From the NCBI GenBank assembly GCA_964016885.1, contig OZ024741.1:147250001-147314000 (forward strand): a stretch of 64,000 nucleotides of DNA, written 5' to 3'. Below, piece by piece: positions 9,481-55,180 of this stretch. Position 1 is the stretch's first letter; each line of letters opens with the position of its first letter. Both the position numbers and the translations under genes were made by a program. The notes under the pieces were generated by a model, which saw only the letters and a list, made by a program, of their open reading frames with translations, ran no database searches and had not been told where the DNA came from. The DNA comes from Eledone cirrhosa (lineage: Eukaryota).

Positions 9481-10569
9481 CCATTAAGTTTCATTTATGG
9501 GGATGACAAGTGGATTAGATTTACTTCCATAAGCAGGATTAGTAAGGAAGTGAAAACATTTAATAATAACTCTCTTCTCCTCCCTCACTATATACATAAC
9601 TTATTCTCTTCCCTCTATTTCAATATATGTAACCTACTCTCTTCCCTCTCTCTCAATATATGTAACTTATTTCAACTAAACACATGCATTGTTTTATTCC
9701 AGCAACAATGCATTACATAAGCTTGGGCTTATATGAAACTTTACACAACAAAACAAGTATGAACAATCAATGTCTAAAGACATCTTATTGTATTGTTTGG
9801 TCCACAATTAGCTACCATGTTTTCTCTTATAACTTTGGCTTTTTTTTTTTTTTTTGTAATAATTGTTTTGTTGTTTTTCCATATCCATTTCTTTATTTCT
9901 CTTCATTTTCTTGTTTTTCTTCTTCCTCCTCTAATTTTTTCTTTTCAATTTTTCGTGCATTTATTCTAACTTCATCTTATTGTAGCCCCTTTTCTTTCAT
10001 TCTTACACTTTCTATTTTCTTCTCGTTCATCTTATTGTTCTTTTTCTTCTTATTCTAATTTATTCATCTTTTTCATCTTCTTATTCTGACTTCTTCATCT
10101 TCATCATTTTATTCTAACTTCATCTTCTTCCCCTAACTTCATTTTATTCTAGCACCTTCTTCATTCCTTTGCTTTCTATTTTCTATTCTTTCATTTTGTT
10201 GCTATTCAACTTGCTATTGTTCTTCTTTTGAGGGATTTACTTAAACTATAAATTCTTTAAGTACTAAGATAGCAACTTAATATATTGCTCTTATATAAAA
10301 TTATGTTGGAAGATTTTAATTTAAATAGAATCCCTTTAAAATGGGTAGTTTTGTTTCATAGAACCAGTGACAGTTTTGGATAGCTTGGTATCAAAAGCCA
10401 AAAAATGAGATCTTTTACTTGTCAATTTCACCCCTTATATTTTCAGCAAGATGTGATAATGTAAAGTGAAATTGATACTCTGCCACCCTGTGTCACTCAG
10501 CATCACCCTGTGCCCCTCTATGTTCTCTCTTCAACCTACAGATTCAGTAGACCCGATCTTATTCCAGTT

Positions 10570-10890
10570 CCATTGGATGGGTAACCTCCTGGGACACATG
10601 TCTATTGTAGGGTTATCCTCCTGGGACACCAGTCCATTGCAGGGTTAACCTTCTGAGACACCTGTCTGTTGCAAAGGTTAACCTCCCTGGGACACCAGTC
10701 TGATGTAGGGTTAACCTCCTGAGACACCTGTCTGTTGCAAAGGTTAACCTTCCTGGGACACCAGTCCATTGCAGGGTTAACCTCCCGAGACACCAGTCTG
10801 CTGCAGGGGTTAACCTCCCTGGGACACCAGTCTGATGTAGGGTTAACCTCCTGAGACACCAGTCTGATGTAGGGTTAACCTCCCAGCACC
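10570..10890. repeat. ~31-bp minisatellite (about 10 units) amplified inside a minus-strand SINE (10460-10980)
   Basis: Unit ggttaacctcctgagacaccagtctgatgtag. The adjacent gctggtactcatt...agcaacatgaaatgaagtg matches SINE family 2 in reverse. Confidence 0.8.
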
Positions 10891-13991: not shown

Positions 13992-14110
13992 GTGAAGGCA
14001 TGTAGCTGAGTGGTAAGAGAATTGGATTTACAATCGTGAGGTTGTAAGTTCGATTCCTGGACCAGGCGATGCGTTGTCCTTGAGCAAGACACTTTATTTC
14101 ATGTTGCTCC
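13992..14110 (+). mobile_element. SINE family 2 head (tRNA-derived, CORE/Meta-like)
   Basis: A box tagctgagtgg, B box gttcgattcc, then gtccttgagcaagacactttatttc. Confidence 0.8.
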
Positions 14111-14331
14111 TTCTACTTTGAGTTGTAACCGATAGAGGATATTAGCAATTGGAAAGACTAACGTAAACATTGTTTCCTGCGTCCGATCTGACAAAAGTCA
14201 ATCGACTGCGATATATATATATATATATATGTTATGATAATAATATGAGATAAAAAAATATATATAACATATACATATATATAAATATATTTTCAACCTT
14301 TGTTGAAAATGATGATGATGATGATGATGAT

Positions 14332-14760
14332 AATTGTTTCTACTTTAGGCACAAGGTCTGTAATTACCCCAGTGCATTACTGGTGCTTTATTTTATCGAC
14401 CCCATAGGTATGGAAGGAAAAGTTAACCTCTGCGGGATTTGAACTCAGACCGCAAAGGAATGTAACACTATACTGCAAAGCATGATGTCCAACCCTCTAC
14501 CGATACTGCCAATCCACCGCCCTTGATGATGATAACAATAACGATTTCTTATATAGGCACAAAGCCAGTAATTTGGGGGAGGGGGAAGTCGATTAAATCG
14601 ACCCCAGTACATTACTGGTGCTTTCTTTTATCGACCCCGTAAAGATGAAAGGCAAAGTTAACCTCGGCGGGATTTGAACTCAGACCGTAGAGGGCCGTAA
14701 CTCTATGCTGCAAAGCATGGTGTCCGACCCTCTACCGATACTGCCAATCCACCACCCCTT
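14332..14760 (-). mobile_element. Two tandem SINE family 1 copies
   Basis: 14332-14523 and 14543-14760 each read ggtggattggcagtatcggtagagggt...gagttcaaatccc...ggggtcgataaaa on the minus strand. Confidence 0.85.
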
Positions 14761-15184
14761 GATGATGATAATAATAATAATAAAATCACCAACTTAACAG
14801 CAGTGCAAATTATAAAATAATAACAACAACAATAATAAACAATGATGATAACACACAAAATACAAAAAAAACATATAATCTGACAATTTTATCAGCTTAA
14901 TTATTCGAAAATAAGAAAGGGGGAAATGTCAAAATCAGAAAAAAGAATCTCAGACAATGAGTAACAAGGAAAAAAATTATAAAAGATACCAATGATGAAT
15001 TGTCACTGAAAGACAATTTATCACTGGTAAATAGAGGGAATCGGGATTTCAAATGATGTGTTTGGTTCAGCTCTTTCCTTTTGCTTTAATTTACTTTTTA
15101 TTGTTTTTTACATTTTGTTTCTTCTTATTATTTATCTTTTTCTTTTTCTTTTTCTTTTTCTTTTTCTTTTTCTTTTTATTATTG

Positions 15185-17198
15185 TTCTTTGAGTCTCAGT
15201 CATTGATGTTATTTAACTGGAAAGTTTGTTGAAATGAATATCAAGCCGCTACCTGCAGCCTCAGATATTCAGGACGTATCGGAGGGTTCTTGCTGTTCCC
15301 AGCAAGCATGCCTTTTGAAGTGTTCCAAAAAGTGGGACTGCACTAATCTTCTTTAACCATCCTTGGAAACTCTTTGAGATAGTACCTAGTGCACCTATGA
15401 CAATCGGGACGACCTTGATTTCAGGGCAGTTCCAAATCCTTTTTAACTCCCACTTTTAATCCTGGTATCGGATAATTTTCTCCCTCTCCTTTTCTTGCAC
15501 TCTCACGTCAAATAGGCAGGCTACAATCATATCATGTCTCCAGCCTTTATAGTGAGTCTGGGCTAGGTGTTTACACTCGGATACAATGTGAGCCACAGTC
15601 TCCTTTCTCTCTCCGCACATCTACAATCAGGCACAATCTTTTTTCCTTGTCCAAAACCACCAGGTCAGGCCTATTGTTTTCCAGTTTCTTATCCGTATGT
15701 TTCCTAAAATCCCATAGCACCTTCACCTGATCGTTTTCTATCACCGACTCTGGCTTATGCTCATACCACTTCTCAGAATGTGGTAAATTGTTTACTTTGC
15801 ATAGATGCCAGTGGATCACTCTGCCAATCATATCATGTCTCCAGCCTTTATAGTGAGTCTGGGTTAGGTGTTTACACTCGGATACAATGTGAGCCACAGT
15901 CTCCTTTCTCTCTCCACACATCCTACACAGTGAGCTAGCCTCCTCCTTGTCAGTATGGTGTTTCACCCACTTCGTTCTGAGGGCTTGCTCTTGCACAGCC
16001 ATTAGCATTCTTTCTGTAGCTTTTTTAGGGTCTCCTCTTTTTAACCAGTTCCATGTCTGTCGATCTCTAAATTCAGTTTTCTTAAAGAAGGTGCTATGAA
16101 GGGATTTTTCATGAAGGTTGCTCTTCCTCCTTGTTGTTATTTCCTCCTTGGCCATCCCCTGGTCTATTTTCCTCTCCTTCAGTATTCTGAGCATTGGCTC
16201 CCTACTGTCAGTCACATATTTGTGCAGGTTTGTTTTTCTCCATCTGAACACAGTCCTCTATGCTGATAAGACCTCTTCCACCTTCAGATCTCTTTAAGTA
16301 GAGTCTATCGACATCACTCCTCTTGTAGAACATGTTGTAGATAGTCATTAGCTTCCTAGTCTTCCTATCCATTTCTTTTTGTTCAGCAACATTCCATTTC
16401 AGAATTCCCGCACTGTACCTAATAATAGACACAGCTCGGGAATTTACTGCACTTATGGCATTCCTACTGTTCACACGTGACTTTAATACGCTCCTTACTC
16501 TCCGAATGTATTCAGATCTTATGAATTCCTTCATTTTTTTGTTCTTGATGTCATCTGCCTCCAGAACACCTAAATATTTCTATCCCTCTTCAGTGTCAAT
16601 TTCCTTTATCATCTCCCCTGTTGGTACCTGGATTCCGTTGCTTCTGCTCAATTTACACTTCTTCATCACTAGGACTCCACACTTATTAATACCAAATTCC
16701 ATATATATATCATTGCTGAAAATATGAACAGTGTCAACAAGTACATCCAACTCCTTCTCACTCTTCCTAAAGAGTTTAAAATCGTCCATGGAGAGGAAGT
16801 GGTTGATGGTAAGCTCTCCTCTTCCCAACTTGTGTCCTGCTCTCACTTTTCGCAATATAACGGACAGGAGAATCAGGGCAAGGACAAACAGCAGAGGGGA
16901 CAAACTATCTACCTGGAAGATACCTCTCTTGATCTTCACGCCTCCCAAGGATTCTCCACCTGATGTTAACTCTGTTTCCCAGGACATCATACTTTTGCTC
17001 AACAACTGTCTGATGTTATCTGCCACCTTCAAGATCTCTAGGCTTTTGGTTATCCAAGAATGAAGTACCATGTCAAATGCTTTTTGTAATCTATCCATCC
17101 CATGGCAAGACCAGTGTGCCTCCGCTTGCAATTCTTCACTACCATCTTATCAATAAGTAACTGGTCTTTTGTACCACGGGATTTCTTTCGGCATCCTT
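15185..17198 (-). mobile_element. R4/Dong-clade non-LTR retrotransposon, 5'-truncated, disrupted (RT + CCHC + restriction-like endonuclease)
   Basis: [58 protein letters not shown]...RHD, NRPDLVV, LQKACLLGTARTLRYVLNI*. The 5' end abuts (TAA)n. Confidence 0.9.
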
Positions 17199-17425
17199 TT
17201 TATTATTATTATTATTATTGGTCTAAGCGGACGTATTTTGCTCGCTCCCAGTAAGTCGCTTTATTTGCCTGTTTAAATTATTTGTTGTTAAATATTTATT
17301 GTTGTATAAGGGATATAAGCCCATAGACTTTGCCCCTTGAAGGGCAGAGTATAATATTTGGGCCTTTTGGCCCAAATATTTGAACTTTTTTTACATGTTA
17401 AAAAATTTACGAAGAAAAAAAAAAC

Positions 17426-19366
17426 ATGGCTAAGCCACGCCCCCCAGCGATATGTCTGCTGTCGTACGACAACGACGTAGAAGTTGAGAGGAGCGCTACA
17501 GCGAAATTAACACACATTGATAACACAAACACCACCACAAACAAGGTAAACAAAGACACCAATGATACCAATAAGAACTCTAATTTGAAAAAGAATGACA
17601 GTAACAGCGACAACGAAAATACAGATAATAAAAAAAAAAAATAACAAATACAACAACAATATCAACACCACTAACATGAAAACAAATAGCGACAACACCA
17701 ACAGCAACAATACCAATTGCACCGAGAACAACGGTGGCAGCAAAGACAACAATGATAACAACGACAGTGCTAACAACAACACCAACAAGAACAACGTCAA
17801 CAACACCCCCAACGAAAACAAGACCACTTTCGCTGCGGCAGCAGCAAAAAAAAGGCCATGTTTCAACATGAACCTCTCAAACAAAGATGAAAAGTTGACC
17901 CAGGCATGGAAGCTCATCAAGCAAGAGCAAACTTGGGCGAACTTAACTGTCCCGGTAGAAGCTATTGAGGCAGTGGAGCGCAAAACGGTACATTATAGAT
18001 GCATCTCAGCACAGACCAAAAGAGCAGCGTTAATCCCACAAGAAGATATCGAAGTCGCGCTGAGGTGCATCAGAGAAGACACCCAGTACATAGAGAGGGG
18101 CAGACAGTACGGCACCATTTCGGTGTTGTTCAAGTCAGAAGCCCTCGCGATGAAACACGCCATGACTCCTTGCAAAACCAGCAAGGTCATAATGTAACCC
18201 TCCAGAATCCCACCAGGACTTGACATGTGGTGGCTTCTGGGATGTGTAATTGTGGAGGGGACGGATACAGTCCCTATAGAAGTTACCAGAATGGCCAGAG
18301 AGGACTGGTCCGGGGCTGACCTGGAGATACTTCTCCAGATCAGGCCCGAGAATGTGAAGACAATCCCAGACCACATCCGACTTCAGAATGGGACTGTCAT
18401 TCACATTATGACCGAAGGCAAAAGGCCGCAGTGTTTGGTTTGTGGGGAAAAAACCCATTTGCGAGCCTTCTGCCCTCAACTGCTGAAAGAGGCAAGGAGT
18501 CGAAATGCTCCACTACTGCCGACACCGGGGCGAGGACCACAACCAACACCGGCACCGGCAAAACCACCAACAACAACACCAATAGAAAGACCACCACCAA
18601 CATTGACCACCCAGGGGGGAAACGAGGAAAGCTGTCAAATTCCCCCTCTCCCCCAAAATACACACACCAATAAAACCTTAAACATACATACAGACACACT
18701 TACAGACACAGACCCCTCATCTACCAGTAGTGAAGATGAAGGAAATCCAAAATCCCCCAAAATACAAAAAAGGAAACACAAAAAGAAAAAAAAACTCAAC
18801 AAAGCACAAAAGCACCCACAATAAAAAAACGCAGACACCACCCGCGCAAACATCTCTCCAATAACATCAACATCAAAACCACCATCACCATCACCAGAAT
18901 CCCCCAAACGCAAACAACCGATACAGACGCAAGAACAAATATACACACAAACATCTGAAACCACAGACACCGCACTCACAACAAACACAGATACAACCGA
19001 AACAACACCACCAAAACCATCACCACCACAGTCACGCAAACAAATAAAATCGCACCAACAAAACATACAAAACTTCGTGCTCGTCAGGAGGGCCAACAAG
19101 GAACTGATGGCCCTCGTATACGAAGTGAAAATATACAAAAAGCGGGGGAAATTTTTAAATCGAGCACATTTCGCGTGCCGGAAGATTTGGTGCTGGTGCG
19201 AATGTCGCTCGACATATTCAAAGAAATACGAGACAGCTTTCCTCGGGACGTGGGAACCCCGAACGTAAAACCCACTTCAAGACTTTTAAAGGGGTTCCCA
19301 AAAGAAACCCCACTAACTATGGAGGTCGAACAACCCAACCTTCAAAAGAGCCCGGAAGGTAAGTAA
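17426..19366 (+). pseudogene. Tx1-A ORF1 (Asn-rich N-terminus, RRM-like region, CX2CX4HX4C knuckle, Pro/Thr-rich tail), with frameshifts and stops
   Basis: ORF pieces 17426-17644, 17595-18197, 18225-18824 (CLVCGEKTHLRAFC) and 19175-19366. Confidence 0.85.
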
Positions 19367-19399
19367 ACCTTCTTCTCTCTCTCTGTTTAACCTGCCAAC

Positions 19400-22300
19400 A
19401 TGGCCGTATTTAGAGTAAGATGTTTAAATGTTCTAGGCCTGGGATCGTCCTGGAAGCAGGGTCACCTGCTCAACGACCTCAGGTCTATAGAAATGGATGT
19501 AATTGCAGTCAGCGAGACCAGGATTTCCGACACGCGCGCACTAGCCCCCATTTTCGACGACTATCAGATCTTTGCATCTGTTAGCCGGCCGGGAATGGGA
19601 GGCGGGGTGGCAGTGCTGTTTAAGAAAGGCCTGGATCTCGAGGTAAGGTCCATCTTCCGGGATCCGGACGGGAAGTTGGTGGTCCTGGACGTGAACAATA
19701 ATGAAGGTGGTGCCTTTAGACTGGTGGCCGTCTATGCTCCTATGCAGGACGGCCGGACTTCTTTAGACGCCTGGAAGCCTTTCTGGGTACATCTCGCCCT
19801 TTACTGTTAGCGGGGGACTGCAACGGCATCTTAGACGCACGCTGGGACTGTGTGGGAGTATCCGATAGGAGCGGGGGGTGCAAAAGCCTCAAGAACCTGA
19901 TCAGCCAGTTCCAACTGTCTGACAGGTACCGACTAGATTTCCCTAGTGCGCCAGTGTGGACCTGGGCTAACCGCATAGGGTCATCTAGATCGTATATAGA
20001 CAGGGTATTCATTAGGGAAATAGACAGAAATAGTGTAAGCTGTCCACGTTTTGAAACGGTCGCCTATTCAGATCACAAGTTTGTGATCTGTATGGTCGAC
20101 CTAGATAATACGCGTAGGTTAGGACCTGGTTACTGGAAGCTAAACATGTCATTTCCGGCACGTAAGGCTTACAGGGACCAGGTCAACAATTTAGTTAAGA
20201 AAAAGTTGACAGGGTGAGTCGTCAACAATAGATGGTGGGGGGCTCTCAAAAGAGAGATTAGAGTAATGTCGATAGAGTTTAGCAAAGAAGTAGCATTAGA
20301 GAAAAATAGAAAGGAGGGGGAGTTGGTAGATAAGTTAGACGAGGCTATTGGTAGTGGCATGGCAACTGATGTGCTAGCGGCGAGAATGGCATTAGACCAT
20401 TTCTTCAATGCTAAACACGAAGGTTGCATTGTCAGAGCTAAGGCGCGTGCTCTGAGAAACGAGGGAACCAAAGCTGTTCGATGGGCCCGCGTGGCATAGG
20501 CGCAGCGTGGTAATAAAACCACGATTCGGTCTTTGACGGACCGAGACGGGCACGAGCTGAGCGAGTCCAAGAGGATGTGTGAGGCCTTTCGCCAACATTT
20601 TGCTCGGTTGCTCGGGGGAAGTGGCGGGTCAGAGATGGTGGCGGACTTCAGTCCCTACCTCGATGGCTTACCGCAACTCTCGACGGCTGACGCTGCGAAA
20701 GGCCAATTACTTCAGCCGAGATTCAGGATGCCCTTGTAGGCTGCATGAGGCGCAAGTCACCCGGTTTGGATGGTCTGCCCTACGAGCTTAACGTAAATAT
20801 GCCAGACTTGTTCTCCAATCTCCTCGAAGTCCTCTACTGCAACTGGCAGCAAAACGGGATTATTCCCAGTTCTGTGAACCGGGGCGTATTGACGCTCATA
20901 AGGAAAGACGAGAACAAGAGGGACACATTAGACAATTTCAGGTCCATAACTCTGCTCAACACAGAGTTTAAGATTTTTGCCAGGGTGTTAGCGAAGAGGT
21001 TGGCGCTTGTCGTCGGGGATTTGGTTGGGGAGGCGCAAACTTGCGCAATCCCAACCAGGTCCATACACGACAACCTCCACCTAATGCGATACATCATAGA
21101 GAGGGTAGGGTGTAAACTTGGCTTCGGTGGGGCTCTGATCAATTTAGATCAATCGAAAGCATTCGATAGGTCGACCATCGGTACCTGGAGGCTGTCCTCA
21201 AGGCGGCTGGCTTCGGCCCCGTCTTGAGAGGCTGGATCGCTGCAATGCACAGTGGCACCTGCTCGATGGTCAAAATTAATGGCCACCTCTCGGCACCGTT
21301 TCAGTCTCCCGATCGGTCCGTCAAGGGTGCCCTCTCTCCTCCCTTCTGTACGTATTGACTCTCGAGCCTTTACTGCGGAAGCTGGAGCTGTTGCAGGGCA
21401 TCCCGCTCGAACCGGGACGCGGAAAGGCTGTGTCGGCTCATGCGGACGACATCACCGTGATGGTGTCGGACACCTCAGAAATCGAGGTGGTCGGCAACTT
21501 ATTGGAGGAATATGAAACGTTGACGGGAGCAAAACTTAAACCGGAAAAGTCAGTAGGCTTGCAACTCGGCATCTGGAGAGGCAAGTCCATGCCGTCCAAC
21601 AGCGTCTTTAGGCGCTGGACGGACGGACCGGTAAAGTTGCTAGTGGTTTGGTTCGGGCCAGACCTCCAGGTGGATAAGAATTGGGACGAGGTGACGGGCA
21701 GGGTAGTCAGTCTCACGCAGAAATGGGCTGGAATGAAGCTATCACTGAAAGGTCGGGCGGAGGTGGCGAACGCGTACGTCGCGTCCGTCATCTACTACCG
21801 TCTGACTGTCGTCCCTTTCCCCCGTTCGCGCCTCGCCATCTAGGAGCAGCTCCTCTTCAAATTCTTGTGGAGGGGTCAGGTTCCGCTGACAGCACCCTCT
21901 ACGTGGAGGGCCGAGCATGCCGTGGCTAATGATGCGTAGGCACGCGCTGAGGCTGCGGCATCTCCAGATATTCTGCCTAAACGGTGAACAGGTGTGGTCG
22001 CCGTTTTTCAGACGGGCCTTTCCGCAGCTCGTATCTTTGACTGAGTTGCAGTCCTGGGTCAAGAAGAGACCAAGACTGGGTGACTGGCATCTGGAATGTT
22101 GCCAGGCACTCTCTGCCCTCTACCAGGCGGGCAATGCGGTCAATGGAACTTCCACTCTCGAGTTCTATAGAGGATTAGTGGTGGGCAAGTGCGACGACGC
22201 ACTCGGAGAGGCTCTGGGAGTCAACGAAGTCGAACTAACCAGTCTGTACCGGAGGACTTTCAAGCCGGGGACGATGGATAATTTCCAAAAATCCCTCGCT

Positions 22301-22789
22301 TGGCAGTGCTACCGGGGGGCACTGCCGGTTCGAGATAAACTCTACAGGCACGGAAGTGCTGTCAGACGGACCTGCCCGAGATGCGCGCAGAGCGACGAGA
22401 CCGTTCTGTACGCTCTTGTCCAGTGTCCGTGCATTACTGACTTGTGGAGTTATGTTGAACAGCTATTGTCGCGTGTAGAACGGATCCGGCTATCGGCCGA
22501 GTCCATAGTCAAGATCGACCCGCCGCCATCTTTTGGCCAGGAAGGGCAGGCAATTTTCCTCTGTCTGGTGGCAGTAGCCAAAGAGGTTGTATGGTGGACG
22601 AGGTTGAAAGGACTGAAGACAGACACTTTTCTCTTCGGCCAATCCCTAATCAACTTTTTCAAGTTTCACTTGGAAAGGAAGGTGAGGGTGGAGAGAGAAG
22701 TGCTGTCCCCCAGTACATTTGCTGAAAGGTGGGTGAATGTGTCGAGAATGGCCCGTGTGAGTGGGCCTACTCTGGTCATGCGGCTGTAG
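19400..22789 (+). pseudogene. Tx1-A ORF2 (APE endonuclease + reverse transcriptase + C-terminal zinc finger), disrupted
   Basis: SETR, VYAP, SYIDRV, YSDHK, GPGYWKLN, KSPGLDGLP, DQSKAFD, AHADD, CPRC...ETVLYALVQC. Several stops and frameshifts. Confidence 0.9.
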
Positions 22790-23296
22790 GTAGGTACATT
22801 TGAAGAGGAGAGGGGTGCCCTTCGAGGGTGCTCTCGAAGCGTCGGGTCATTCAGGACTGATGGGGTACCTGAGCGAACCCTAGGTGGTCATCCCCCCCCC
22901 CCTATCGGGGAATTTTTTCTTGTTGTAATTTTCTTGTTACTTTATTGTTACTTTGTTATTGTTACTTTGTTTATTCATATTGTTTACTCGATTTTTCTGT
23001 AAAACCCCACTGTCCCAGTCTTTTGTATTGTCCCCTATATGTCGGCCCTTGTGGCCAATAAATGAAATCATTATTATTATTATTATTGGCGACCTACGTA
23101 GTAAATCGTATCATCGTGAGCTCCGCAAAGGTTTGTTATTTCCGTTTGTTAAAAATTGCCATTTATGGAAAATTTTTATTGTTAACCATATATAAGCGCA
23201 CATACATTGTTTTCCGAAAAGGACACCCAAAAAGATTGGGGCCTTGTGCCCAAAATTTAAACCTTTATTATTATCAAAAAATTTCTTTGAAAAAAA

Positions 23297-25301
23297 ATGG
23301 CTAATTCACCTCTGCACCAAGCAGCTGAAAGCCTTCCTCACAAATTAACACCTCACACCGACACCACCATTGTAAATGTTACTACGTTTGCCAACACGAC
23401 AAAAAATATAAGCAGTAGCAATATTTTAAATTTGTCTCAGGCAGACATTCATTTCCCGCCATTACCAATGACTGCAGGTGTTAAAGCCTCCACCACCACC
23501 GCGACAACCACCACCACCACCGCAACGACAACCACCCCCACCACCACCGCGACAACAGAAACAAAAGAAGAAAAAAATAAATTAACTCGTGATGTCGAAA
23601 TGAAATCAAGCAAAATGGACTCTTCCCCACCAAAGACGACTGACGTCACCACCACCACAACTGAAACTAAAATTAATATTAACACAAATAACGATAGCAA
23701 CAACAAACACAATGACATTATAAAAACCACCCTCAGTTTCGCCAGAGTAGCAAAAGAGTTCGAAGCATTTACGGTAACTCAGGAGGATTTAGAAAATGCC
23801 AAACAAATGGTAAAGAAAGATGGGTACAGGGTCAGCCTCACCCCCCCACCTAATAAAATGGAGCATCGGCGCCTATGCACCGTGTCGTATCGAACAATAA
23901 ATGTAAAATAGCGCCGAGTGGAACGGGCATCCGAGTCCCAAATCCAAAAAGCTTTGGGACATGTGTGGGCAAAAAAAACTCACATCAGACGTGGGCAAAA
24001 GTATGGAACCGTGGACGTGTTCTTTGAAACACCAGAGGAGGCTAGAGAACACTCCATGGCCCCATTAAGAAGTGACGACTTCACACTCGTCCCTAGCTAT
24101 TGTGGCCAGAGACTCGTAAAGATCAGGGTGACCCACGTTCCACCGGCCATCGAAATTCCCTGGCTAATAGCGGCCGTACTCGCCGGCATCGAAGCCAACA
24201 CAAAAATAATAGCAATAGCAAAAGAAAAGCAGGAGAACTGGTCCGGATCTGGGATGGAGCTCCTGATCCAAGCGAACCAAAAAAAGCATTGAGGAGATCC
24301 CAGAGGTAATAGACCTCACTGACGGCAGCCACCTCACGGTAATGGTCGAGGGCAGAAGACCTAGGTGTGTCGTTTGTGGTGAAGGAACCCACCTAAGGGC
24401 TTTCTGCCCTCAGGCTAAAAGGTTGAGGTCACCTCTCCTACCCACCCCAGTGACACAACCATCAACACCACCAGTAGCAGAGATGGCAGCAACAACTGTA
24501 GCAGCAACAACAGAAGCAACTATAACAGCAACAACCCCAGCAACAGTAGCAAAACCAACACCACCACCAGCAAAACCAACACCACCACCACCCAACACTT
24601 CAGAACTAGCACCAGCGCCTACACCATCCACCACGCCACAACCAAAACTAACGCCTGTGGAGGATTTTCCACTCCCCGGCCTATCACAACTGGAGACAGA
24701 TTGTGACGACGAGGAGTGGGAAACGATATCCGGAAAAAAAAAAGAAACCAAAAAAGTAAAAATTCTCTTCCTTCCCCCTCCAAAAACAAAATACAGAGGG
24801 AAACAAATAAATTAAGAAACAAAAAAGTTAGGACAGATATACCACCATCCACACCAGCATCACCAACCCCATCAACCCAAACACCAACACTATCACCATC
24901 ATTAACCCCAACACCACCATCACCTACACTACAAAAGTCACCAAAATGCGAAACAGAAACAAACCCACAACAAACGCAAACAAAACAAAACAACCAAAAC
25001 GATACACACTACACAGCATTAAATTTGAACAACAAGCAATTATTACCCTACATCCAACACAACACCAGCATCACAGAAAAAGACTACACAACAACCCAAA
25101 AATTCACACCACCTCCACACATACAAATCACTCGCATCACACAGAAAGCGTACATGACACTAAAAAAAAAAATTCCCCAAAGACATCGGAGACTTCCGAC
25201 AAGCACTCTCCAGGAGGATTTATAAGGACATCCTTCCTGAGGAGGCCACAAGCAGTGAAAAGGATGGAAAAACCGTCCTTCCCCTACGAGAAGTAAGGTA
25301 A
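23297..25301 (+). pseudogene. Tx1-B ORF1 (Thr-rich N-terminus, CCHC knuckle, Pro/Thr-rich tail), disrupted
   Basis: Pieces 23297-23911, 23918-24292, 24342-24815 (CVVCGEGTHLRAFC) and 24716-25225. The C-terminal frame FPKDIG...LREVR* aligns with family A FPRDVG. Confidence 0.85.
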
Positions 25302-25335
25302 GTGGTCTTTCCCATCTTTTCCACTCCTTTTCAAC

Positions 25336-28300
25336 ATGACCTCACTCAGAATAGGCAGCATAAATGCGCGTGGCTTGGGGTCGTCATGGAAGCAGGGCCA
25401 CCTGCTCAACGACCTCAGGTCACTAAACATAGATGTAGTGGCCATCAGCGAGACCAGAATCTCCGAGGCACAGGCTTTCGCACCGATCTTCGGCGGCTAC
25501 GATGTGTACGCATCTCCCAGCCGTCCGGGATCGGGGGGAGGAGTTGCTGTGCTTTTTCGGAGAGGTTTGGATCTTGCCATACGGGCCATCTTCCTGGACC
25601 CAGAAGGTAAGTTGGTGGAGCTGGACGTGACCAGCGGAGACGGGCAAGCTTTCAGGTTAGTGGCCGTCTATGCCCCGACAGGAGCAGGGCGGCCTGATTT
25701 CTTCCGGCGTCTGGAGACCTTTCTTGGAACGTCCCTCTCTTTAGTGTTAGTGGGCGACTGGAACGGGATCTTAGATGCACGCTGGGATTGTGTGAGATTA
25801 GTGGATAGGGAAGGAGGGTGCAAGAGTCTCACCAACCTGCTCAGACGTTTTGAACTGTCTGACAGGTACCGAATGGATTTCCCGAATGTACCAATGTGGA
25901 CTTGGACAAATCGCATAGGGTCATCCAGATCATATCTAGATAGAGTATTTTGTAGGGAAATAGATAGGTCTAGCATAGGCTGTCCACAATTCAAGATAGT
26001 CAGCTACACGGACCACAAATTCGTGATCTGTGTGCTTGACTTAGATAGGCTTCATAGACGAGGACCCGGCTACTGGAAGCTAAACGCATCCTTACCAGCG
26101 CGCGAGGCCTACAGAGACCGGATTAGCGAACTAGTTAAGCGGGCGTTGACGGGGGCCATCGTCAACAACAAGTGGTGGTTTGCTCTGAAAAGAGCAATTA
26201 GAATAGAGTCCATTAGGTTTAGTAAGACTTTAGCAATAGAGAAAAATAGAGCAGAGGGAGAATTAGTTAGAAAATTGGATGAGGCGCTTAGCAAAGGCAT
26301 CGCGACCGACGTACTTGCGGCGAAATTGCCCCTTGACCAATTCTTCAATGCAAAGCACGAAGGCTGCGTTGTCAGAGCTAGGGTGCGTGCTCTCAGACAC
26401 GAGGGGACGAAAGCCGTTCAATGGGCCCGAGTGGCGGAGGCGCGTCGTGGCAACAAAGCCACGATCCGGTCTTTGGTGGACCACGACGGGCGCATGCTAC
26501 TCGATCCCGGGCAATGTGTGAAGCTTTTCAGCGACACTTCGCTCAACTGTTCGGGGGCAGTGGCGGGCCGGATCGAGGGATGGACTTTAGTGTCTACCTC
26601 GACGGACTGCCGCGGCTTTCGGCCACTGAGGCGGAGTGTTGCGAAAAGCCGATAACAACCGCTGAAGTACGGGGTGCAATGAGTAGTTGCACAAGGGGTA
26701 AATCGCCTGGTTTGGATGGTCTGCCCTATGAACTTTACGTACAAATGCCAAACTTGTTCGGAGGCCTCTTGGCGGACGTCTACTGCAACTGGCAACAGAA
26801 CGGGAGAATTCCCAGCTCTGTGAGCCGAGGAGCGGTGGCGCTGCTGAGAAAGGATCCGAACAAGGGGGATAACATAGATAATTTTAGGCCCATAACTCTG
26901 CTAAACACAGAGTTCAAGATTTTGGCCAAGGTGCTAGCAAAGAGGTTGGCGCTTGTCGTTAGTGGGAGAGGCACAGACATGCGCCATTCCCGACAGATCC
27001 ATCCACGACAACCTCCACCTCATGCGATACATCGTAGAGAGGGTAGCTAGGGAACCTGGCACGGGTGGGTCTTTGATCAATTTAGATCAGTCGAAAGCCT
27101 TCGATAGGGTCGACCATCGTTACCTAGCGGCAGTCCTGGGGGCGGCTGGCTTTGGGCCCGTCTTCAGAGGCTGGATCGCTGCCATTCACAGCGACATCTG
27201 CTCTGTAGTGAGAGTGAACGGTCACCTTTCGGAACCGTTCAACATCATGCGCTCGGTCCGCCAAGGATGTCCCCTCTCGTCCCTATTGTACGTATTGACT
27301 CTCGAGCCATTACTGCACAAACTGGAGACGTTGAGGGGGGTCCCGCGCGAACTAGGATGCGGAAGATCCGTGTCAGCATATGCCGACGATGTCACCGTAG
27401 TGGTGTCGAACGCCAAACACATCGAGGCGATCGGCACTACACTAAGAGAATACGAAACGGTGACAGGAGCAATGATCAACCAGGAAAAGTCAGTGGGCCT
27501 GCAGCTCGGCACCTGGAGAGGCAGGTCCATGCCGTCCAACAGCGTCGTCGGGCGCTGGACGGACGGACCGGTTAAATTGCTAGGGGTCTGGTTCGGTCCA
27601 GACCTCCAGACGGACAAAAACTGGGACGAGGTGACGAGCAGGGTGGCTTCTCTCACCCAGAAATGGGCCGAGAGGAAGCTATCCCTGAAAGGTCGAGCGG
27701 AGGTGGCGAATGCGTACATCGCATCCGTCATCTACTACCGCCTGACCGTTGTACCTTGTCCTAAGCCCCGCTTGACTGCGCTGGAGCGTTTGCTCTTTCG
27801 CTTCTTGTGGAAGGGACGCGCTCCGATGGTCAGGCGGTCCATCTGCTGTCAACACCCGCTACGTGGAGGGCTGGGCATGCCGTGGCTGATGATGCGCAGA
27901 CACGCGCTCAGGCTACGACATCTCCACCTCTTCCTCGACGGTGATCAGGTGTGGTCGCCGTTTGCTAGACACGTTTTTCCCCACCTCGTCTCCTTGACGG
28001 AGCTGCAGTCCTGGGTCAAGCGAAGACCGAGAGGGAGCGCTTGGAGACTGGAATGTCTTCAGGCGCTCACAGCCCTCGACCAATCGGGCAATGTGATCGG
28101 TGGAAACTCCACCTTGGCTTTCTATAGGAGATTAGTGGAGGGGAAGAGCGACGACGTACTTGGAGAAACTCTAGGCGTCGACGAAAATCAACTAGCCAAT
28201 CTCTTCGGAAGGACTTTCGGGTCGGGGCCTATGGACAACTTCCAGAAATCCCTGGCCTGGCAGTGCTACCGAGGAGCTTTGCCAGTTCGGGATAAACTCT

Positions 28301-28746
28301 ACAGGCATGGAGGTGCCGTAAGCCGGGCATGTCCGAGATGCGCGCAGGGCGACGAAACCGTCCTGCACGCACTCGTCCAGTGTCCGAGCATTGCTGACTT
28401 GTGGGTTTATGTCGAACACCTGCTGTCACGTGTAGGACGGATCCAGCTATCAGCTGAGTCCATCGTGAGGATTGCCCCGCCCCCTTCCTCTGGCCGGGAA
28501 GGGCAGGCAGTTTTTATCTGTCTGGTGGCCATGGCGAAAGAGATAGTATGGTGGACACGTTTGAAAGGGCTGAAGACGAGCACTTACCTCTTCGGTGATG
28601 CCCTGATTAACTTTTTCAAATTTCATTTGAAAAGGAAAATCAGGGTAGAGAGGGAAGTTCTCTCTTCCCAGCATTTTGTTGAAAGATGGGTGAGAGAAGC
28701 AAGTATGGCCCGAATGAATGGGCCTTCTCTGAGTATGTGTCTGTAA
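25336..28746 (+). pseudogene. Tx1-B ORF2 (APE + RT + zinc finger), two frameshifts (~26510, ~26955)
   Basis: SINARGL, SETR, GDWN, SYLDRV, YTDHK, DQSKAFD, RQGCPLS, AYADD, CPRC...HALVQC. Confidence 0.92.
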
Positions 28747-29195
28747 ATTAAAGGTGGAAAACTGGGAGAGGGCACTTGCCCTGGTGGTCAGGGCCACTGT
28801 GGTCTTTTTAATGGGCTTTCTCCACAAATGTCCCTCGGAAGTCTCCCCCCCTATTGGGGAATTTTTCTTTGTTATTTTATTTCAACCTCTGTTTTTTTTT
28901 ACACGCAGAAATGCCCATTTGTACCGTCCTGTACTGTCCTTAATGTCTACTTTATGTAAACCCTTGTGGTTAATAAAGAAAACATTATTATTATTATAAT
29001 TATTATTATTATTTTTATTTATTTCTCCCCCTCATGAACATCATAACAACTGTGAAATGTGAATTTACTCAGTGGAGAAAGTATTTTCTGAAAGACCCTA
29101 AGAGTCATGAGTTCAAATCTAGAGCAAATATTGTTATTGTTGAAATTTGTGCCTTTCTATGCAACTGACCATAAAAATAGTCAATCACTATAAAT

Positions 29196-29378
29196 AATTG
29201 TTTACACTTTTGGCACAAGGCCAGCAATTATCCCAGTTCATTAGGTGCTTTATTTTATCGACCCCATAGGGATGAAAGGCCAAGTTAACCTCGGCTGGAT
29301 TTGAACTCGGACCGTAAAGGGCCGTAACTCTATGCTGCAGAGCATAGCGTCCGACCCTCTACCAATACTGCCAATCCA
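29196..29378 (-). mobile_element. SINE family 1
   Basis: Matches the other family 1 copies. Confidence 0.85.
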
Positions 29379-29666
29379 AATAATAGTGGAGAAAATCAGG
29401 TAAAGTACCTTACCCACCATTATTGTTGTTTATTTTACTTTATTTTATTTTATTTTTTTATTACTATCAATCAGCCCTGCAGATCAATGATCAAAGATAT
29501 TCCAGTCAATTAATCATGGTTTCAATTACAATGCTCAGTTCAACACTTTATTAAAGGTTCCTTTTACATTTTGTTTTGTTTTTGTTTTTGTTGTTTTTGT
29601 TTTTTTGGCGGGGGGGGGGGCCCTTTTGTATTCGTTTTTCTCATTCTTCCATTCTTTTTTTTATTC

Positions 29667-29930
29667 ATGGCCGAGTGGTTAGAGTTCTGGGCTCAAGATT
29701 ATAAGGCCATGGGTTCAAATACCTGCCCAGGCAGTACATTGTGTCCTTGAGCAAGACACTCCAATTCATGTTACTCCAGTTCACTCAGCTGAAAATGAAT
29801 ACCAACAGCTGGGAATTAATACCGTAATGGATTGACACCCATTCAGCAAGGAGTCTTGTATTCTCAGTTGCTTAAAACCAAATGAAAATAGGCTAAGCTC
29901 TGGCCTGATGAATGAACCTCAGGGCTTGCC
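29667..29930 (+). mobile_element. SINE family 2
   Basis: tggccgagtggttag...ggttcaaat...gtgtccttgagcaagacact. Confidence 0.75.
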
Positions 29931-30073
29931 TTAGATTTTAACCCTTTCAATACCAACCCTGACAAAACTGCCTGTGATACAAAACCACCCATTTTAAACA
30001 GTTCCTATTTTAGTTAAAATATAATTTAATATAAAAACACTTTGTTAAGTTATGTGACAAATGTTATCGTTAT

Positions 30074-30295
30074 AATTGTTTCTGCTATAGGCCCAACGTC
30101 AGAAAATTGGAGGGAGGAGAACGTTGATTAAATCGACCTCTGTGTTTGACAGGTACTTTATTTTATCGACCCTGTAAGGATGAAAGGCAAAGCTAACCTC
30201 GGTGGTATTTGAACTCAGAATGTAAAGGGCTGTAACTCTATGCCATGAAGCATGGTGTCTGAGGCTTTAACGATACTGCCAATACTCCACCCTTA
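30074..30295 (-). mobile_element. SINE family 1
   Basis: ggtactttattttatcgaccc...atttgaactcaga. Confidence 0.8.
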
Positions 30296-30312
30296 TCTTA
30301 ATGATAATATTA

Positions 30313-31288
30313 TCTCTATATATATAAAACAGAGGATATATGTCTGTTTGTGTAAATCCCTAAAACTCGAGAAGTACCTGACCGATTTTTTTCAAACTTT
30401 ACACTATATTTCTTGAAGTGCAATGGGCTAAAAAAAATTTACTTTTTCTGCCCTAGGCGAAAAACCACATGTTTTAGGCATTTTTAGGCTTTTTTGAGGC
30501 GTAACTTAAAGATAATCCAGCTGATTTCCTCGAAATGTGCACCACACGTTAGATAGTCCCCTCGCATTGTTGTGGACAAAAAAATTTCCGATTCGATTAA
30601 TTGTTTCTAGGAAATTTACGAATTAGCATTGGGCATTACATGCCATTTTCATTTTCAATATAAACGCTACTTAAACATCGTAAGTAGCGTATAATATTTT
30701 GTTAAAAATTTGGTTTATTTAACAGAGGACACAACACTTACTTTTAAGCAGGACCATTTTTGGGGATTGAGGAAATGAGGGGGATCTTAAAATTTTGTCG
30801 GCGCCCTGTTGATGTTTCGTGCTTTCATCACGCGCAAATCCGGGCCCTGTGTATGTTGCCGTGTTATTGACACCGTAAAACTCACGTCTGTACTACTTCT
30901 ACTAAGACCCCTTTTGTTGCACCTACACTGCAGTATGAATGCTCTGCGCATGTACTCAAAATAGTGGTTGTGCTAATTCTGCAGTGACCCCTTTTGTTGC
31001 ACCTTTGTTGCTGTGTAAACGCAGTGCAGCCAGTGCCACCCAGTGTTTGTGCTAATTGCACTATGATCCCCTTCTGCTGCAGCTGCGTTGCCACGCTGAT
31101 TTCGTCATCTCAATATCCCTACTTAAATGTACATCCCTACTTGGTTTTCACACAATTGACTACATCGCTCCTCAATCATTCCCTGAGAATAAGGGAATTC
31201 AAAAAGTACACAGCTACATTCCTCAATCTTTGCATATGTGTGTTGCTATTTCACGTTTCCTACCCCGTGCAACGCTGGGTCCAGCTAG
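30313..31288 (+). mobile_element. Non-autonomous Helitron
   Basis: 5' TCTATATATATAAAA; 3' subterminal cccgtgcaacgctggg followed by CTAG (31285-31288). The 5' region is homologous to the 44145-44637 element. Confidence 0.8.
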
Positions 31289-38117: not shown

Positions 38118-38779
38118 TCCGAGGTGCACGCAAGGCAATGAAACCATTCTGTATGCACTCGTCGAGTGTTCGAATATTGCTGACCCATGGGTTTATGTTG
38201 AGCACCTGCTGTCATGTGTAGGATGGATCTGACTATCAACTGAGTCCATTGTGAAGATCGCCCCTCTTTCCTCTTTAAGAAGGGAAGGACAGGCAGTTTT
38301 TACCTGCTTGGTGGCCATGGGGAAAGAGGTTGTGTGGTGGACACATTTGAAAGGGTTGAAGACAGTCATCTTCCTCTTTGGTGAAGCCCTGATTAACTTT
38401 TTCAGATTTCACTTGAAGAGGAAAATCAGAGTGGAAAATCAGATGTGTTGCCTTCCAGCCAGTTTGTTGAAAGGTGGGTGAGAGTGGTGAACATGGTCCA
38501 TGTGAATGGGCTTGCCTTGAGCATATGCCTGTAGATTGGAGTAGAAAGGCTGGGAGAGGGCACTTTGCCCTAGCGGACTGTGGCTTTTGTGGGATTTCTA
38601 GACAAGTGACCATTAGAGTCTCCTCAACTTTGGGAGAATTATTATGTTTGTTTTAAATGTTTATTTTCTTGGTCTCTTTTATAATTTTTATTTTACACAA
38701 AGAAAAACCTGCACTGTATCATCCTGTATCGTCTTTAATGTCTCCTTAATGTGAGCCCTGTATGGCTAATAAAGAAATC
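38118..38779 (+). mobile_element. 5'-truncated Tx1 copy (related to family B)
   Basis: REGQAVFTCLVAMGKEVVWWTHLKGLKT...FGEALINFFRFHLKRKIRVE. Ends ctaataaagaaatc+(ATT)n and is preceded by cattattatccttattat. Confidence 0.88.
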
Positions 38780-40790: not shown

Positions 40791-40965
40791 GGTGGATTGG
40801 CAGTATCGGTAGAGGGTCGAATGCCATGCTTTGCAGCAAAGAGTTATGGTCTGAGTTCAAATCCCACCGAGGTTAACTTTGCCTTTCATTCTTACGGGGT
40901 CAATAAAATAAAGTACCAGTAATACACTGGGATAATTGCTGGCCTTGTGCCAAAAGTAGAAATAA
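40791..40965 (+). mobile_element. SINE family 1 with (AAT)n tail
   Basis: ggtggattggcagtatcggtagagggtcg...gagttcaaatccc...gcctttcattcttacggggtcaataaaataaagtaccag...ggccttgtgccaaaagtagaaataataat. Confidence 0.88.
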
Positions 40966-48395: not shown

Positions 48396-48780
48396 AAAGG
48401 ATTTTCTTGACCTCAATTCCAGTACATATATTTTAAAATCTAGTACTTATTTTATTGATCTCTTCTATTCTCTTTGAAACGTGTGTCTATGCATTCATAT
48501 GTATGATGGTACCCTATCGCTTGCGATGAAGATTCTTACAGCTAGGTTTCTCAAATGGAACTGCCTGAAATTAAGGTGAGAGTGTCTGAGCATTTGATAG
48601 GCACGTATAACAGAGGGTTTCAGGGTGGGACTACATTGGTTTTTCGTCTTACTGGCAGATTACACTTTTTTTTTTTACTTCAGTGGAGAGAAGAAAGGCG
48701 AAATAAAGTGTCTTGAGCTTCACTAACCTCGGAAGACGATTTGTGTGCGATATGTGTGTGTGTCTCTATATATATATATA

Positions 48781-49040
48781 TATAATTGAATATAAAAGAA
48801 AGGTAAACACAGATATATACATACATGTGTTCAAATCGTAAGGGACCAGATTCGCTAAGGTGATTGGTAGTTACCACAATTCCGGTTTGTATTTATTTCC
48901 TTGATTTATTCTTAAATTGAGTCTGGCAAACCCTATTGTCCATAGTTAGTATTCTTTTCACCTTAGCGAATCTGGTCCCTTACGATTTGAACACATATAT
49001 GTATATGTCTGTGTTTACCTTTCTTTTATATTCTATTATA
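48781..49040. repeat. Inverted repeat, ~82-bp arms with ~95-bp spacer
   Basis: 48781-48862 (…cgtaagggaccagattcgctaaggtga) is the reverse complement of 48958-49040. Confidence 0.85.
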
Positions 49041-49228
49041 ATATACGGCTCGAAAAAATCTCTTTCCTAGAGCTATTTTATTGTAAGAGACTATTTTGAG
49101 TTTCTAACTCAATATATACCTTTGATATATATATATATATATATATAAGAGAGTATTGAACACCTTGCTTGAAGCATTGTGGAATAAAAAGGTATATTTC
49201 TTTAGGTTGTTTTATATATATATATTAA

Positions 49229-49850
49229 TGCATGCACAGTATGGACCGGCCTTCGCGCATGCGAAATACGGACCAGCCTTCGCGCATGCGCAGTATGGAC
49301 CAGCCTTCGCATATGCATTTTTTGGACCAGCCTTCGCACATGTGCACTTTGGACCAGCCTTCGCACATGCGCACATCGGCCAGTCTTTGCACATGCGCCC
49401 TTCGGACCAGACTACCCACATGCGCACTTCGGACCAGACTTCGCACATGCACACTTCCAACCAGCCTTTACGCATGTGCACTTCCGAGCAGACCTCGTGC
49501 ATGCACACTTCGGACCAGCCTTCGCGCATGTGCACTTCATACCAGCCTTCACGCATGTGCAGTACGGACCAGCCTTCGCGCATGCGCACTTCTGACCAGA
49601 CTTCGCGCATGTGCACTTTGGACCAGTCCTGTGCATGCGCACTTCAGACCAGCCTTCGCACATGCACACTTCCGACCAGACTTCGCGCATACGCACTTCC
49701 GACCAGACTTCACGCATGCGCACTTCCGACCAGACTTCGCACATGCGCACTTCCGACTAGGCTTCGTGCTTGCACCATTCAAACCAGACTTCGCGCATGC
49801 GCACTTTGGACCAGACTTCATGCATGCACACTTCGGACCAGACTTCGCCT
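49229..49850. repeat. 29-30-bp GC-rich minisatellite (~21 units)
   Basis: Consensus gaccagacttcgcgcatgcgcacttc(g/c)g. Confidence 0.92.
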
Positions 49851-50135: not shown

Positions 50136-51485
50136 ATCTAAACTATAATAAAGTAAGAAGCGCGGGACTGCATACGGTTTATAATTTTTTATCCCCTTAG
50201 TAAAATAAGTTGGATTACTTTGAATAAATAATTGTTTCTACTATTGGCACAAGGCCAGCAATTACCCAGTGCATTACTGGTACTTTATTTTATCGACCCC
50301 GTAAGGATGAAAGGCAAAGTTAACCTCGGCGGGATTTGAACTCAGAATGGCAAGGGCCGTAACTCCATGCGTCAAAGCATGGCGTCCGACCCTCTACCGA
50401 TACTGCGAATCAATGAATGAATATTACATAATTTATCTATTAAATTTTGTGGCGGTTCATTAAATATATTTTATTATTTATTTAAAGATTCACTTCTTTC
50501 AAATTTTCAAATGTCAACACTTCCGGTTAGCGATCGCTTAAATAAATATTCATATATTTCTGTCACTAATTTTCTCCTAATGCAGTTTATATATAATATC
50601 GTCTTTTTTAATATATCATGGATTACGTTACTGATTACAGAAGACAGTATAACACAGTCTTCATTCAATTTCTGTGTATATTGTCCATTTTGGTTTTATT
50701 TGATGTATCATATCTACATGTATATATACTAGCGTATAATATCAATATACACACTACACATGCTAGTAGAAAACCAACCGAAGGGTGGTTTTTCTGCTAG
50801 TTATATTAAATGAGTTTTAAAAAAAAGAGTTAATAAATAAATAAAACGTTATACTTGTTTTACTCTCCCATTTCCAATTACACTGAATGCTATAATGACT
50901 GTATGTGTGTGTTTGTGTAAATGTATGTGTGAATTTATGTATGTTTGTGTGAGAGTATGTGTATTTGTGTGAATTATGTCCGTGAGTGTATATTTTTATA
51001 AGTTTGTGTTTGCGTGATTATAGTTATATACTCATAATAGTTATATACTCATACATATAGATGTATGTATGTGCATACTCATACGCGTCAGTGTGTAGAA
51101 AATCATAATCTCTCTATCTCTCTAATCACACACTCTCTCTTTCTATATATATGGTAGTTGAAGTGGTGGTGGTGGCGACGATATACCGGAAGTGCAACTT
51201 TGAAAAGAAGTCAATTTTAGATTATTTATTTTTACAAAATTATTTGTTTACGAAATTTAGTACTTAAATTATGTAATATTCATTCATTATTTATTCACTA
51301 TTTGCCTTTCATCCTTACGGGGTCGATAAAATAAAGTACCAGTAATGCACTGGGATAATTGCTGGCCTTGTGCCAAAAGTAGAAATAATTATTTATTCAA
51401 AGTAATCCAACTTATTTTACTAACTGGATTAAAAGAAATATACTGTACGCAGTCCCGCAGCCCTTGCTTTATTATAGTTTAGATT
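50136..51485. mobile_element. Fold-back / long-TIR element with SINE family 1 sequence in both arms
   Basis: 50136-50527 is an inverted, diverged match to 51183-51485. Confidence 0.65.
50595..50800 (+). mobile_element. Helitron 3'-end fragment
   Basis: Homologous to 45101-45290 in the opposite orientation. Ends with a hairpin and CTAG|T. Confidence 0.75.
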
Positions 51486-51499
51486 TACTATAATAATTA

Positions 51500-51770
51500 T
51501 AATTGTTTCTACTTTTGGCACAAGGCCAACAATTACTGGTACTTTATTTTATCGACCCCATAAGGATGAACAGCAAATAATAATTGTTTCTACATTTGTC
51601 ACAAGTCCAGCAATTTGAAGGGAAGGGGAAAGTTGACTAAATCATCCCTTGTGCATTACTGGTATTTTATTTTATTCACCCTGTAATGATGAAAGGCAAA
51701 GCTAACATCGGCAGGATTTAAACTCAGAACATTAAGGGCCGTAATTCTATGCTGTGAAGCATGTTGTCCA
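51500..51770 (-). mobile_element. Two SINE family 1 pieces
   Basis: Match to the family 1 consensus. Confidence 0.75.

Positions 51771-54399: not shown

Positions 54400-55180
<781 letters not shown>

Follow-up and report, generated by a model that had tools for sequence, protein, structure and literature searches.

RESULTS

Two retrotransposons in one ATT tract

This study concerns a stretch of 64,000 nucleotides from the octopod Eledone cirrhosa (assembly GCA_964016885.1, contig OZ024741.1, forward-strand positions 147,250,001 to 147,314,000), hereafter the window, in which two different full-length long interspersed nuclear elements (LINEs), A and B, lie head to tail within a single run of ATT repeats. 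We consider, with a probability of about 0.72, that A and B represent two families of one L1/Tx1-type lineage that inserts at Y|ATTAT sites, its apurinic/apyrimidinic-type (APE) endonuclease likely nicking the AAT strand. The sites occupied by the lineage are mostly (ATT)n tracts, entered in one orientation and phase. This reading builds on the coding anatomy, junction counts, two truncated copies with target-site duplications (15-17 bp), the lack of poly(A), the stacking of copies and a compensated 3' hairpin. The features of the locus, in window coordinates, are as follows.

17200..17219, + strand: 5' target tract, TT plus (ATT)6, from sequence reading
17220..23069, + strand: element A, full length, decayed, beginning GG
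23044..23069, + strand: 3' end of A, hairpin GGCC-CTTGT-GGCC, then AATAAA, then TGAAATC
23070..23087, + strand: spacer between A and B, exactly (ATT)6
23088..28983, + strand: element B, full length, broken
23239..23251, + strand: hairpin in the 5' untranslated region (UTR) of B, CTTGT loop identical to that of the 3' hairpin
28959..28983, + strand: 3' end of B, hairpin AACC-CTTGT-GGTT, then AATAAA, then GAAAAC
28984..29013, + strand: 3' target tract, (ATT)4-ATA-(ATT)5
38119..38779, + strand: third copy, 5'-truncated, from another family of the lineage, 72-74% identical to A and B
15184..17199, - strand: R4/Dong-like LINE, 5'-truncated, with reverse transcriptase (RT), zinc finger and a C-terminus of restriction-like nuclease type
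14335..14521, - strand: copy of a ~185-nt short interspersed nuclear element (SINE), with the 3' hairpin loop and ATTAT junction in common with the LINE lineage
29199-29378, 40792-40962, 50233-50411 and others: further copies of the SINE

A first-pass annotation had described A and B as full-length elements stacked in one orientation in one (ATT)n tract, which held with slight corrections to the coordinates, and had noted the missing poly(A), which we also observed. The three lineage copies in the window (terminating in AATAAATGAAATC for A, AATAAAGAAAAC for B and AATAAAGAAATC for the third copy) have the common terminus pattern AATAAA(T)GAAAWC and are followed directly by ATT, with no poly(A). 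The third copy (hairpin AGCC-CTGTAT-GGCT) had been credited with the same 3' junction and an ATT-like 5' flank; it does run into (ATT)7 downstream, its upstream ATT is degenerate, and its start was corrected to 38119. A tandem duplication as the origin of the pair, already argued against in that annotation, is ruled out by divergence in open reading frame 1 (ORF1), given that the blastn match between A and B (75.2% over 3433 nt) is almost limited to ORF2, with two short extra matches, and that the ORF1 cores are just 34% identical over 227 aa. The nearest sampled relative of window B was 99.1% identical and that of window A 96.8%, suggesting that B probably inserted after A at this locus; the spread of the two families (700 nt, 20 copies each) had medians of 96.0% for A and 94.8% for B.

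Coding anatomy and placement of the lineage

ORF2 of both elements carries the Pfam domains Exo_endo_phos (N-terminal), RVT_1 and zf-RVT (C-terminal). In A, ORF1 begins at 17427 and ORF2 (19400-22789) has decayed into six frame pieces with five stops. In B, ORF1 (23297-24815) has one stop and one frameshift, and ORF2 (25336-28746), encoding the APE endonuclease, RT and zf-RVT, has two frameshifts, which contradicts the earlier view of B as nearly intact. Reconstruction of B is unneeded, given that ORF2 is open at 1139 aa in 5 of the 69 B-type copies examined elsewhere in the genome. A CCHC zinc knuckle in ORF1 is typical of Tx1, and one of the form CX2CX4HX4C was read in ORF1 of both A and B, for which Pfam gave no match above threshold. 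About 520 nt (24815-25336) separate the usual B ORF1 stop from ORF2, and a minority of copies has a frame of ~667 aa that passes through an A-run, which may reflect homopolymer slippage or a frameshift signal. Hairpins stand just ahead of ORF1 in the 5' UTR of both elements, at 23239-23251 in B and at 17353-17380 in A, the latter with a 12-pair stem (z -5.2); the CTTGT loop of the B hairpin recurs in the 3' hairpin and in the SINE tail. A search of 14000-30500 against Rfam gave neither a ribozyme nor any other RNA family.

The closest relative of ORF2 with a solved structure was human L1 ORF2p (E 1e-48), with R2 at 1e-18. Judged by its predicted domains, ORF2 of A and B is that of an APE-type non-LTR retrotransposon (LTR, long terminal repeat) of the L1 group, and the lineage also has the 5' truncation, the target-site duplications and the absence of LTRs that characterize the group; the N-terminal APE domain places A and B outside R4/Dong. 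RT trees, the second of them built from 41 of 112 rows, grouped the lineage and unnamed ENA proteins in a branch of their own (100/99), which formed a polytomy with vertebrate proteins named as Tx1-like and with a U2-inserted element; verified sequences of L1, Kibi, Koshi and Xenopus Tx1 were not among the rows. Vertebrate Tx1-like proteins matched with up to 297 bits over 760 aa and human L1 with 169 bits, these scores coming from different databases. The closest named protein was from Argonauta hians (71%), and the closest non-octopod relatives were ENA proteins at 41-44%. Protein cluster look-ups returned no Tx1 names, and distant metagenome relatives (24-33%, one short piece at 41%) showed no ATT tracts in the 16 of 80 loci inspected. 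The earlier assignment to Tx1 was retained as far as an L1/Tx1-type element is concerned, but the RT falls outside the branch of named vertebrate Tx1 proteins. We suggest that the lineage behaves like a microsatellite-specific Tx1 with its RT in an own branch of the L1/Tx1-type radiation, and this separate branch suggests an origin independent of Kibi and Koshi. A Keno-like element in a U2 small nuclear RNA gene was seen on one metagenome contig (L326, 1-123 and 5806-5947), and L326, L320 and L324 have a U2-like match upstream of ORF2.

ATT flanks across the genome

Junctions were counted at exact 5' and 3' end matches in the 3.0 Gb searched. ATTATT stood directly upstream, in phase, of 2144 of 2240 exact B 5' ends (95.7%) and 241 of 246 exact A 5' ends (98.0%), which is far above chance given that ATTATT occupies 0.13% of positions in the window (ATTAT, 0.27%). 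The sequence beyond the 5' tract was diverse in all 30 B and all 30 A loci compared (window copy in each set), and ATT also lay 5' of 14/14 copies of a third family, described below, that were located through their 3' ends. A 3' poly(A) tail is usual in the L1 group; here, 1584 of 1762 exact B 3' ends passed straight into ATTAT. There are more exact B-type 5' ends (2240) than exact 3' ends (1762); the patterns behind the two counts differ in strictness, but for a LINE the share of full-length copies seems unusually high.

We considered truncated copies to be the fairer test of targeting, given that they cannot carry a 5' leader. For this test we took the first 100 B 3' ends of one contig, examining 81 places and assigning 13 further ends to a 5' end by position. 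Before the tally we removed full-length copies and the third family, as well as chimeras (L212, L234, L278), internal deletions (L263, L276, L303), duplicates (L218, L232, L233) and an inverted copy with ATT as its outer flank (L274), which left 30 truncated B copies. Upstream ATT of at least 6 nt was found in 18 of these (random positions, up to 1%) and of at least 9 nt in 17 (random positions, up to 0.5%). Random 5' flanks, which the first-pass annotation had named as an outcome that would refute its proposal of ATT targeting, were therefore not what we found, truncated copies included. Microsatellite-specific Tx1 families have been recognized by more than 20% of flanks being one repeat (PMC4494074), and here the share was 96-98% of full-length and 57% (17/30) of truncated 5' flanks. 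Two truncated copies at imperfect sites have target duplications, of 17 bp in L177 and of 15-16 bp in L138, and an empty inverted paralogue of L177, 6 kb away, carries the predicted pre-insertion sequence, tract included. Given the target duplications and this one empty paralogue, the ATT predates insertion, and the proposal of ATT targeting gained support from flanks, duplications and paralogue alike. Inverted 5' segments resembling twin priming were seen in L151, L236 and L274.

Pure 5' ATT runs were longer at full-length copies (n=30, median 40 nt) than at the truncated copies with ATT flanks (n=18, median 16.5 nt; p=7e-5). Among the 101 full-length copies with both flanks known, 27 have a 3' flank that leaves ATT within its first 12 nt, and in just three of the 27 does the departure recur upstream, each time with additional ATT between it and the junction. 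Part of the ATT at full-length 5' ends is probably RNA-borne, and we lean slightly toward a full-length RNA that carries an AUU-repeat leader pairing with the target.

A 3' hairpin shared with an abundant SINE

The 3' ends of the lineage have a four-pair stem around CTTGT immediately before AATAAA. Over 197 ends, the arms read AACC/GGTT in 116 and GGCC/GGCC in 35, with AGCC/GGCT in the third copy, so that the arms co-vary through compensatory changes. The ~185-nt SINE has the terminus GGC-CTTGT-GCC...AGAAACA; its terminal 26-mer occurs 137,049 times genome-wide, hence at least 137,049 copies, and A plus ATTAT follows 110,142 of these 137,049 ends. A duplication of at least 8 nt from the 3' junction was found in 23 of 30 position-ordered SINE copies (1 of 30 in a shifted control), the base ahead of it was C or T in 21 of the 23, and SINE and LINE duplications both begin at ATTAT. 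The likeness of the last 26 nt of the SINE to A and to a fourth family was reached in 2 and 0 of 5000 shuffles, respectively, and there was no match to three Dong-like or two RTE-like ends, these being LINEs in the examined loci. The lineage is likely the mobilizing partner of the SINE, given that the hairpin is shared and that SINE duplications start at ATTAT. The SINE is putatively tRNA-derived, judging from A- and B-box-like motifs read by eye; Rfam gave no tRNA match for two SINE loci. The window SINE was unmatched to the octopus SINEs OK, OR1 and OR2, which are known to us by name only.

Shared tracts and neighboring elements

Of 30 B 5' ends taken in order of position, ten directly follow the 3' end of another lineage member. 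Of 76 distinct B 3' tracts, 24 led into a Dong-like 3' end on the opposite strand, 13 into the 5' end of a lineage member and 4 into a SINE piece, the flanks of the other 35 being unclassified. R4/Dong-like elements occupy ATT tracts from the opposite strand, their ends running into AAT where lineage ends run into ATT. The window holds an example, with the Dong-like element at 15184-17199 head to head with A and the ATT tract, read as AAT, forming its 5' flank; we provisionally assign this element to R4/Dong from its motifs rather than by a tree. A second basis for the label is the TAA target of Dong (PMC3812793).

A sequence that recurs downstream is the 5' end of the third family (L179, L260, L267 and others), in which ORF2 is B-like (93-97%), the 5' UTR is unrelated to that of B and the ORF1 region differs, the switch lying just ahead of ORF2. 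By this pattern, the third family is a presumptive 5'-module swap relative to B. The lineage is also present in contigs of two other organisms (four runs examined; repeat junctions not spanned). At L177 and L430, an inverted pair is formed by an RTE-like family whose frame is long and open and whose tail is a GT/AT/ATT composite. Elsewhere in the window are self-inverted stretches (48775-49045, 51299-51579 and 54767-55142), some of them head-to-head SINE copies, and tandem minisatellite arrays at 49229-49848 and 10564-10884.

DISCUSSION

We propose that ORF2p would bind the 3' hairpin and nick the bottom strand at 5'-ATAAT/R-3', which, like the L1 consensus TTTT/AA, is a pyrimidine-purine step. 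The transcript would extend a few bases into the downstream ATT, pair with the nicked strand and prime reverse transcription, and full-length RNA would start inside the upstream tract, such that its AUU repeats could pair with the target where the 5' junction forms, making the tract longer. Since ATT would be left on both sides of each insertion, later copies could stack behind earlier ones, and the lineage protein would mobilize in trans the abundant SINE bearing the hairpin loop. The endonuclease alone may set the specificity, with RNA-DNA pairing a live rival.

Several observations weigh against this model. ATTAT was absent after 178 of 1762 B 3' ends, and upstream ATT was shorter than 6 nt in 12 of the 30 truncated B copies, three of which have short ATT with microhomology and nine of which have neither ATT nor a duplication. 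Dong-like sequence borders three of these nine, and a likely DNA-transposon end borders one; our guess is that such copies reflect later deletion or insertion. Later mutations or insertions can also explain some of the 27 early 3' interruptions, which weakens the step of an RNA-borne 5' AUU. The shared 3' terminal sequence and stem-loop are strong for two families and weak for two (the SINE tail matched B and the third copy at the level of 79 and 171 of 5000 shuffles), and fold energies are not significant, the hairpins folding no better than shuffles (z about -1.4). In addition, the hairpin is not formed in one window SINE copy, its co-variation comes from just three or four families, and the common third-family stem (AGCC/GGCC, 8 ends) has one unpaired position. 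Finally, the SINE, unlike the LINE, lands on one or two ATT units, upstream ATT of at least 9 nt occurring in just 3 of 30 SINE copies. The core target may be a motif of 5-6 nt; given that the SINE uses short ATT sites, recognition probably centers on Y|ATTAT, the LINE favoring long tracts.

We regard it as unlikely that LINE targeting is real while the SINE is moved by another LINE, such as an RTE element with an ATT-type tail, the tail likeness being due to chance. There is an RTE-like family whose end is an ATT/GTT tract (L177/L430), RTE is abundant in octopus (PMC8967140, PMC9115989), the common stretch is only about 25 nt, and the comparison covered the LINEs in examined loci. However, the RTE-like and Dong-like ends are unlike the SINE tail, and the SINE and the lineage agree in loop, AGAAA-type end, orientation and ATTAT junction.

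Selection of the site mainly by RNA, with a loosely specific nickase cutting many T/R steps and only nicks that pair with AUUAU being primed, seems to us improbable. Such a mechanism has been proposed for RTE, CR1 and L2 elements, and a tail-target correlation has been described for RTE-related elements (PMC6007223). In the lineage, just 6-7 nt separate AAUAAA from the element end, and the RNA therefore probably reaches ATT; SINE and LINE duplications open with an identical 5-6 nt; and a few copies (L433, L253, L179) have one extra ATT before the duplicated marker. Yet at least 9 nt of ATT is duplicated in 17 of the 30 truncated LINEs, compared with an overlap of one to several bases (PMC6007223), the C or T ahead of 21 of 23 SINE duplications lies outside any RNA pairing, and the endonuclease of Tx1L shows sequence specificity in vitro (PMC1950540).

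It is very unlikely that the A-B pair came from a read-through dimer transcript that was co-transposed; stacks are common, as the 10 of 30 B 5' ends behind lineage 3' ends illustrate, but truncated copies downstream of other 3' ends (L269, L270, L277, L299) need successive insertion, window B has a closer sampled relative than window A, and an 11.8-kb cDNA would be required. Hardly any credence is left for ATT as an element-made tail or leader, with insertion at random or passive accumulation in repeat-rich regions, an explanation largely refuted: the 5' runs of full-length copies are longer and purer than duplication would yield, so some ATT is probably element-borne, and nine truncated copies lack upstream ATT, but random insertion and a pure ATT tail are ruled out by the flanks of the 17 truncated copies unable to carry a 5' leader, the tract already present in the L177 empty paralogue and the constant orientation and phase, and 24 of 76 3' tracts lead into an opposite-strand Dong-like 3' end.

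Our preferred reading, of an L1/Tx1-type lineage inserting at Y|ATTAT, can be set against the literature. L1-Tx1 and Dong-R4 both occur in coleoids (PMC8967140), and SINEs account for ~40% of octopus transposable element content and have been linked with rearrangement of the genome (PMC8967140, PMC12988792). The portions of the literature available to us (including PMC3747384, PMC4758252, PMC4640811 and PMC3531059) describe no Tx1-type element on ATT or AAT, Repbase and Dfam being outside this scope and the supplement and Fig. 3 of PMC4494074 possibly listing further Tx1 targets; they also name no partner LINE for any octopus SINE. That the lineage is already catalogued in Repbase or Dfam we place on the unlikely side, though as a serious prospect. 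Microsatellite-targeting Tx1 (TC, TTC, TTCC, TTTC) is known; the ATT target appears to be new, and the SINE link and the proposed target-borrowed RNA ends set the lineage apart from a routine new member. Somewhat short of even odds, and thus tentatively, we picture an undescribed multi-family lineage with independent ATT specificity, a hairpin in place of poly(A), both RNA ends borrowed from the target, tract growth and a niche shared with Dong, which drives a dominant octopus SINE.

If this is true, the driver of octopus SINE expansion would be named and much of the ATT-repeat load explained. A candidate SINE partner with natural open-frame copies makes the partnership directly testable, and the thousands of lineage junctions can be used to decide between enzyme and RNA as the chooser of the site. 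With the lineage, the few APE retrotransposons known to be sequence-specific gain a further target, and two unrelated nuclease classes are seen to converge on one microsatellite from opposite strands.

Kibi inserts into (TC)n, Koshi into (TTC)n and crocodilian Tx1 families into (TTCC)n or (TTTC)n (PMC4494074, PMC3812793). Like A and B, these are APE-type LINEs of the L1/Tx1 group that insert in microsatellites; A and B differ in the target unit, ATT, and in the octopod host, Kibi and Koshi being compared by description only, and the RT of the octopod lineage, 35-40% identical to named vertebrate Tx1-type proteins, forms a separate branch. The U2-targeting Tx1 element Keno is represented by the U2-inserted relative L326 (28% over ORF2), which shares the L1/Tx1-type radiation with the lineage but has a different target, keeps an A-rich tail and is not on a sister branch. 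Dong, of the R4 clade, targets TAA repeats (PMC3812793, PMC3774820), a microsatellite identical to that of the lineage, and Dong-like elements share tracts with it in the Eledone genome; Dong differs from A and B in its restriction-like endonuclease, unrelated clade and opposite orientation. R2 RNA keeps upstream 28S sequence, and pairing of this leader explains its uniform 5' junctions (PMC3774820); the AUU leader that we propose from junction statistics alone would likewise be target-derived. Stringent LINE-SINE pairs of the L2 and CR1 type share a 3' stem-loop (PMC4824008), and the octopod lineage resembles them in its shared tail with a compensated stem, although it is of L1/Tx1 type. The crocodilian Tx1-Mar has been proposed to mobilize SINEU on the basis of a shared target preference, which is weaker in some SINE families (PMC4494074). 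There, as with our lineage and its SINE, a Tx1-type LINE is the probable SINE mobilizer; that system differs in its target, a Mariner transposon, and in its U1/U2 SINE head, and the octopod lineage adds a shared 3' hairpin and a SINE of at least 137,049 copies.

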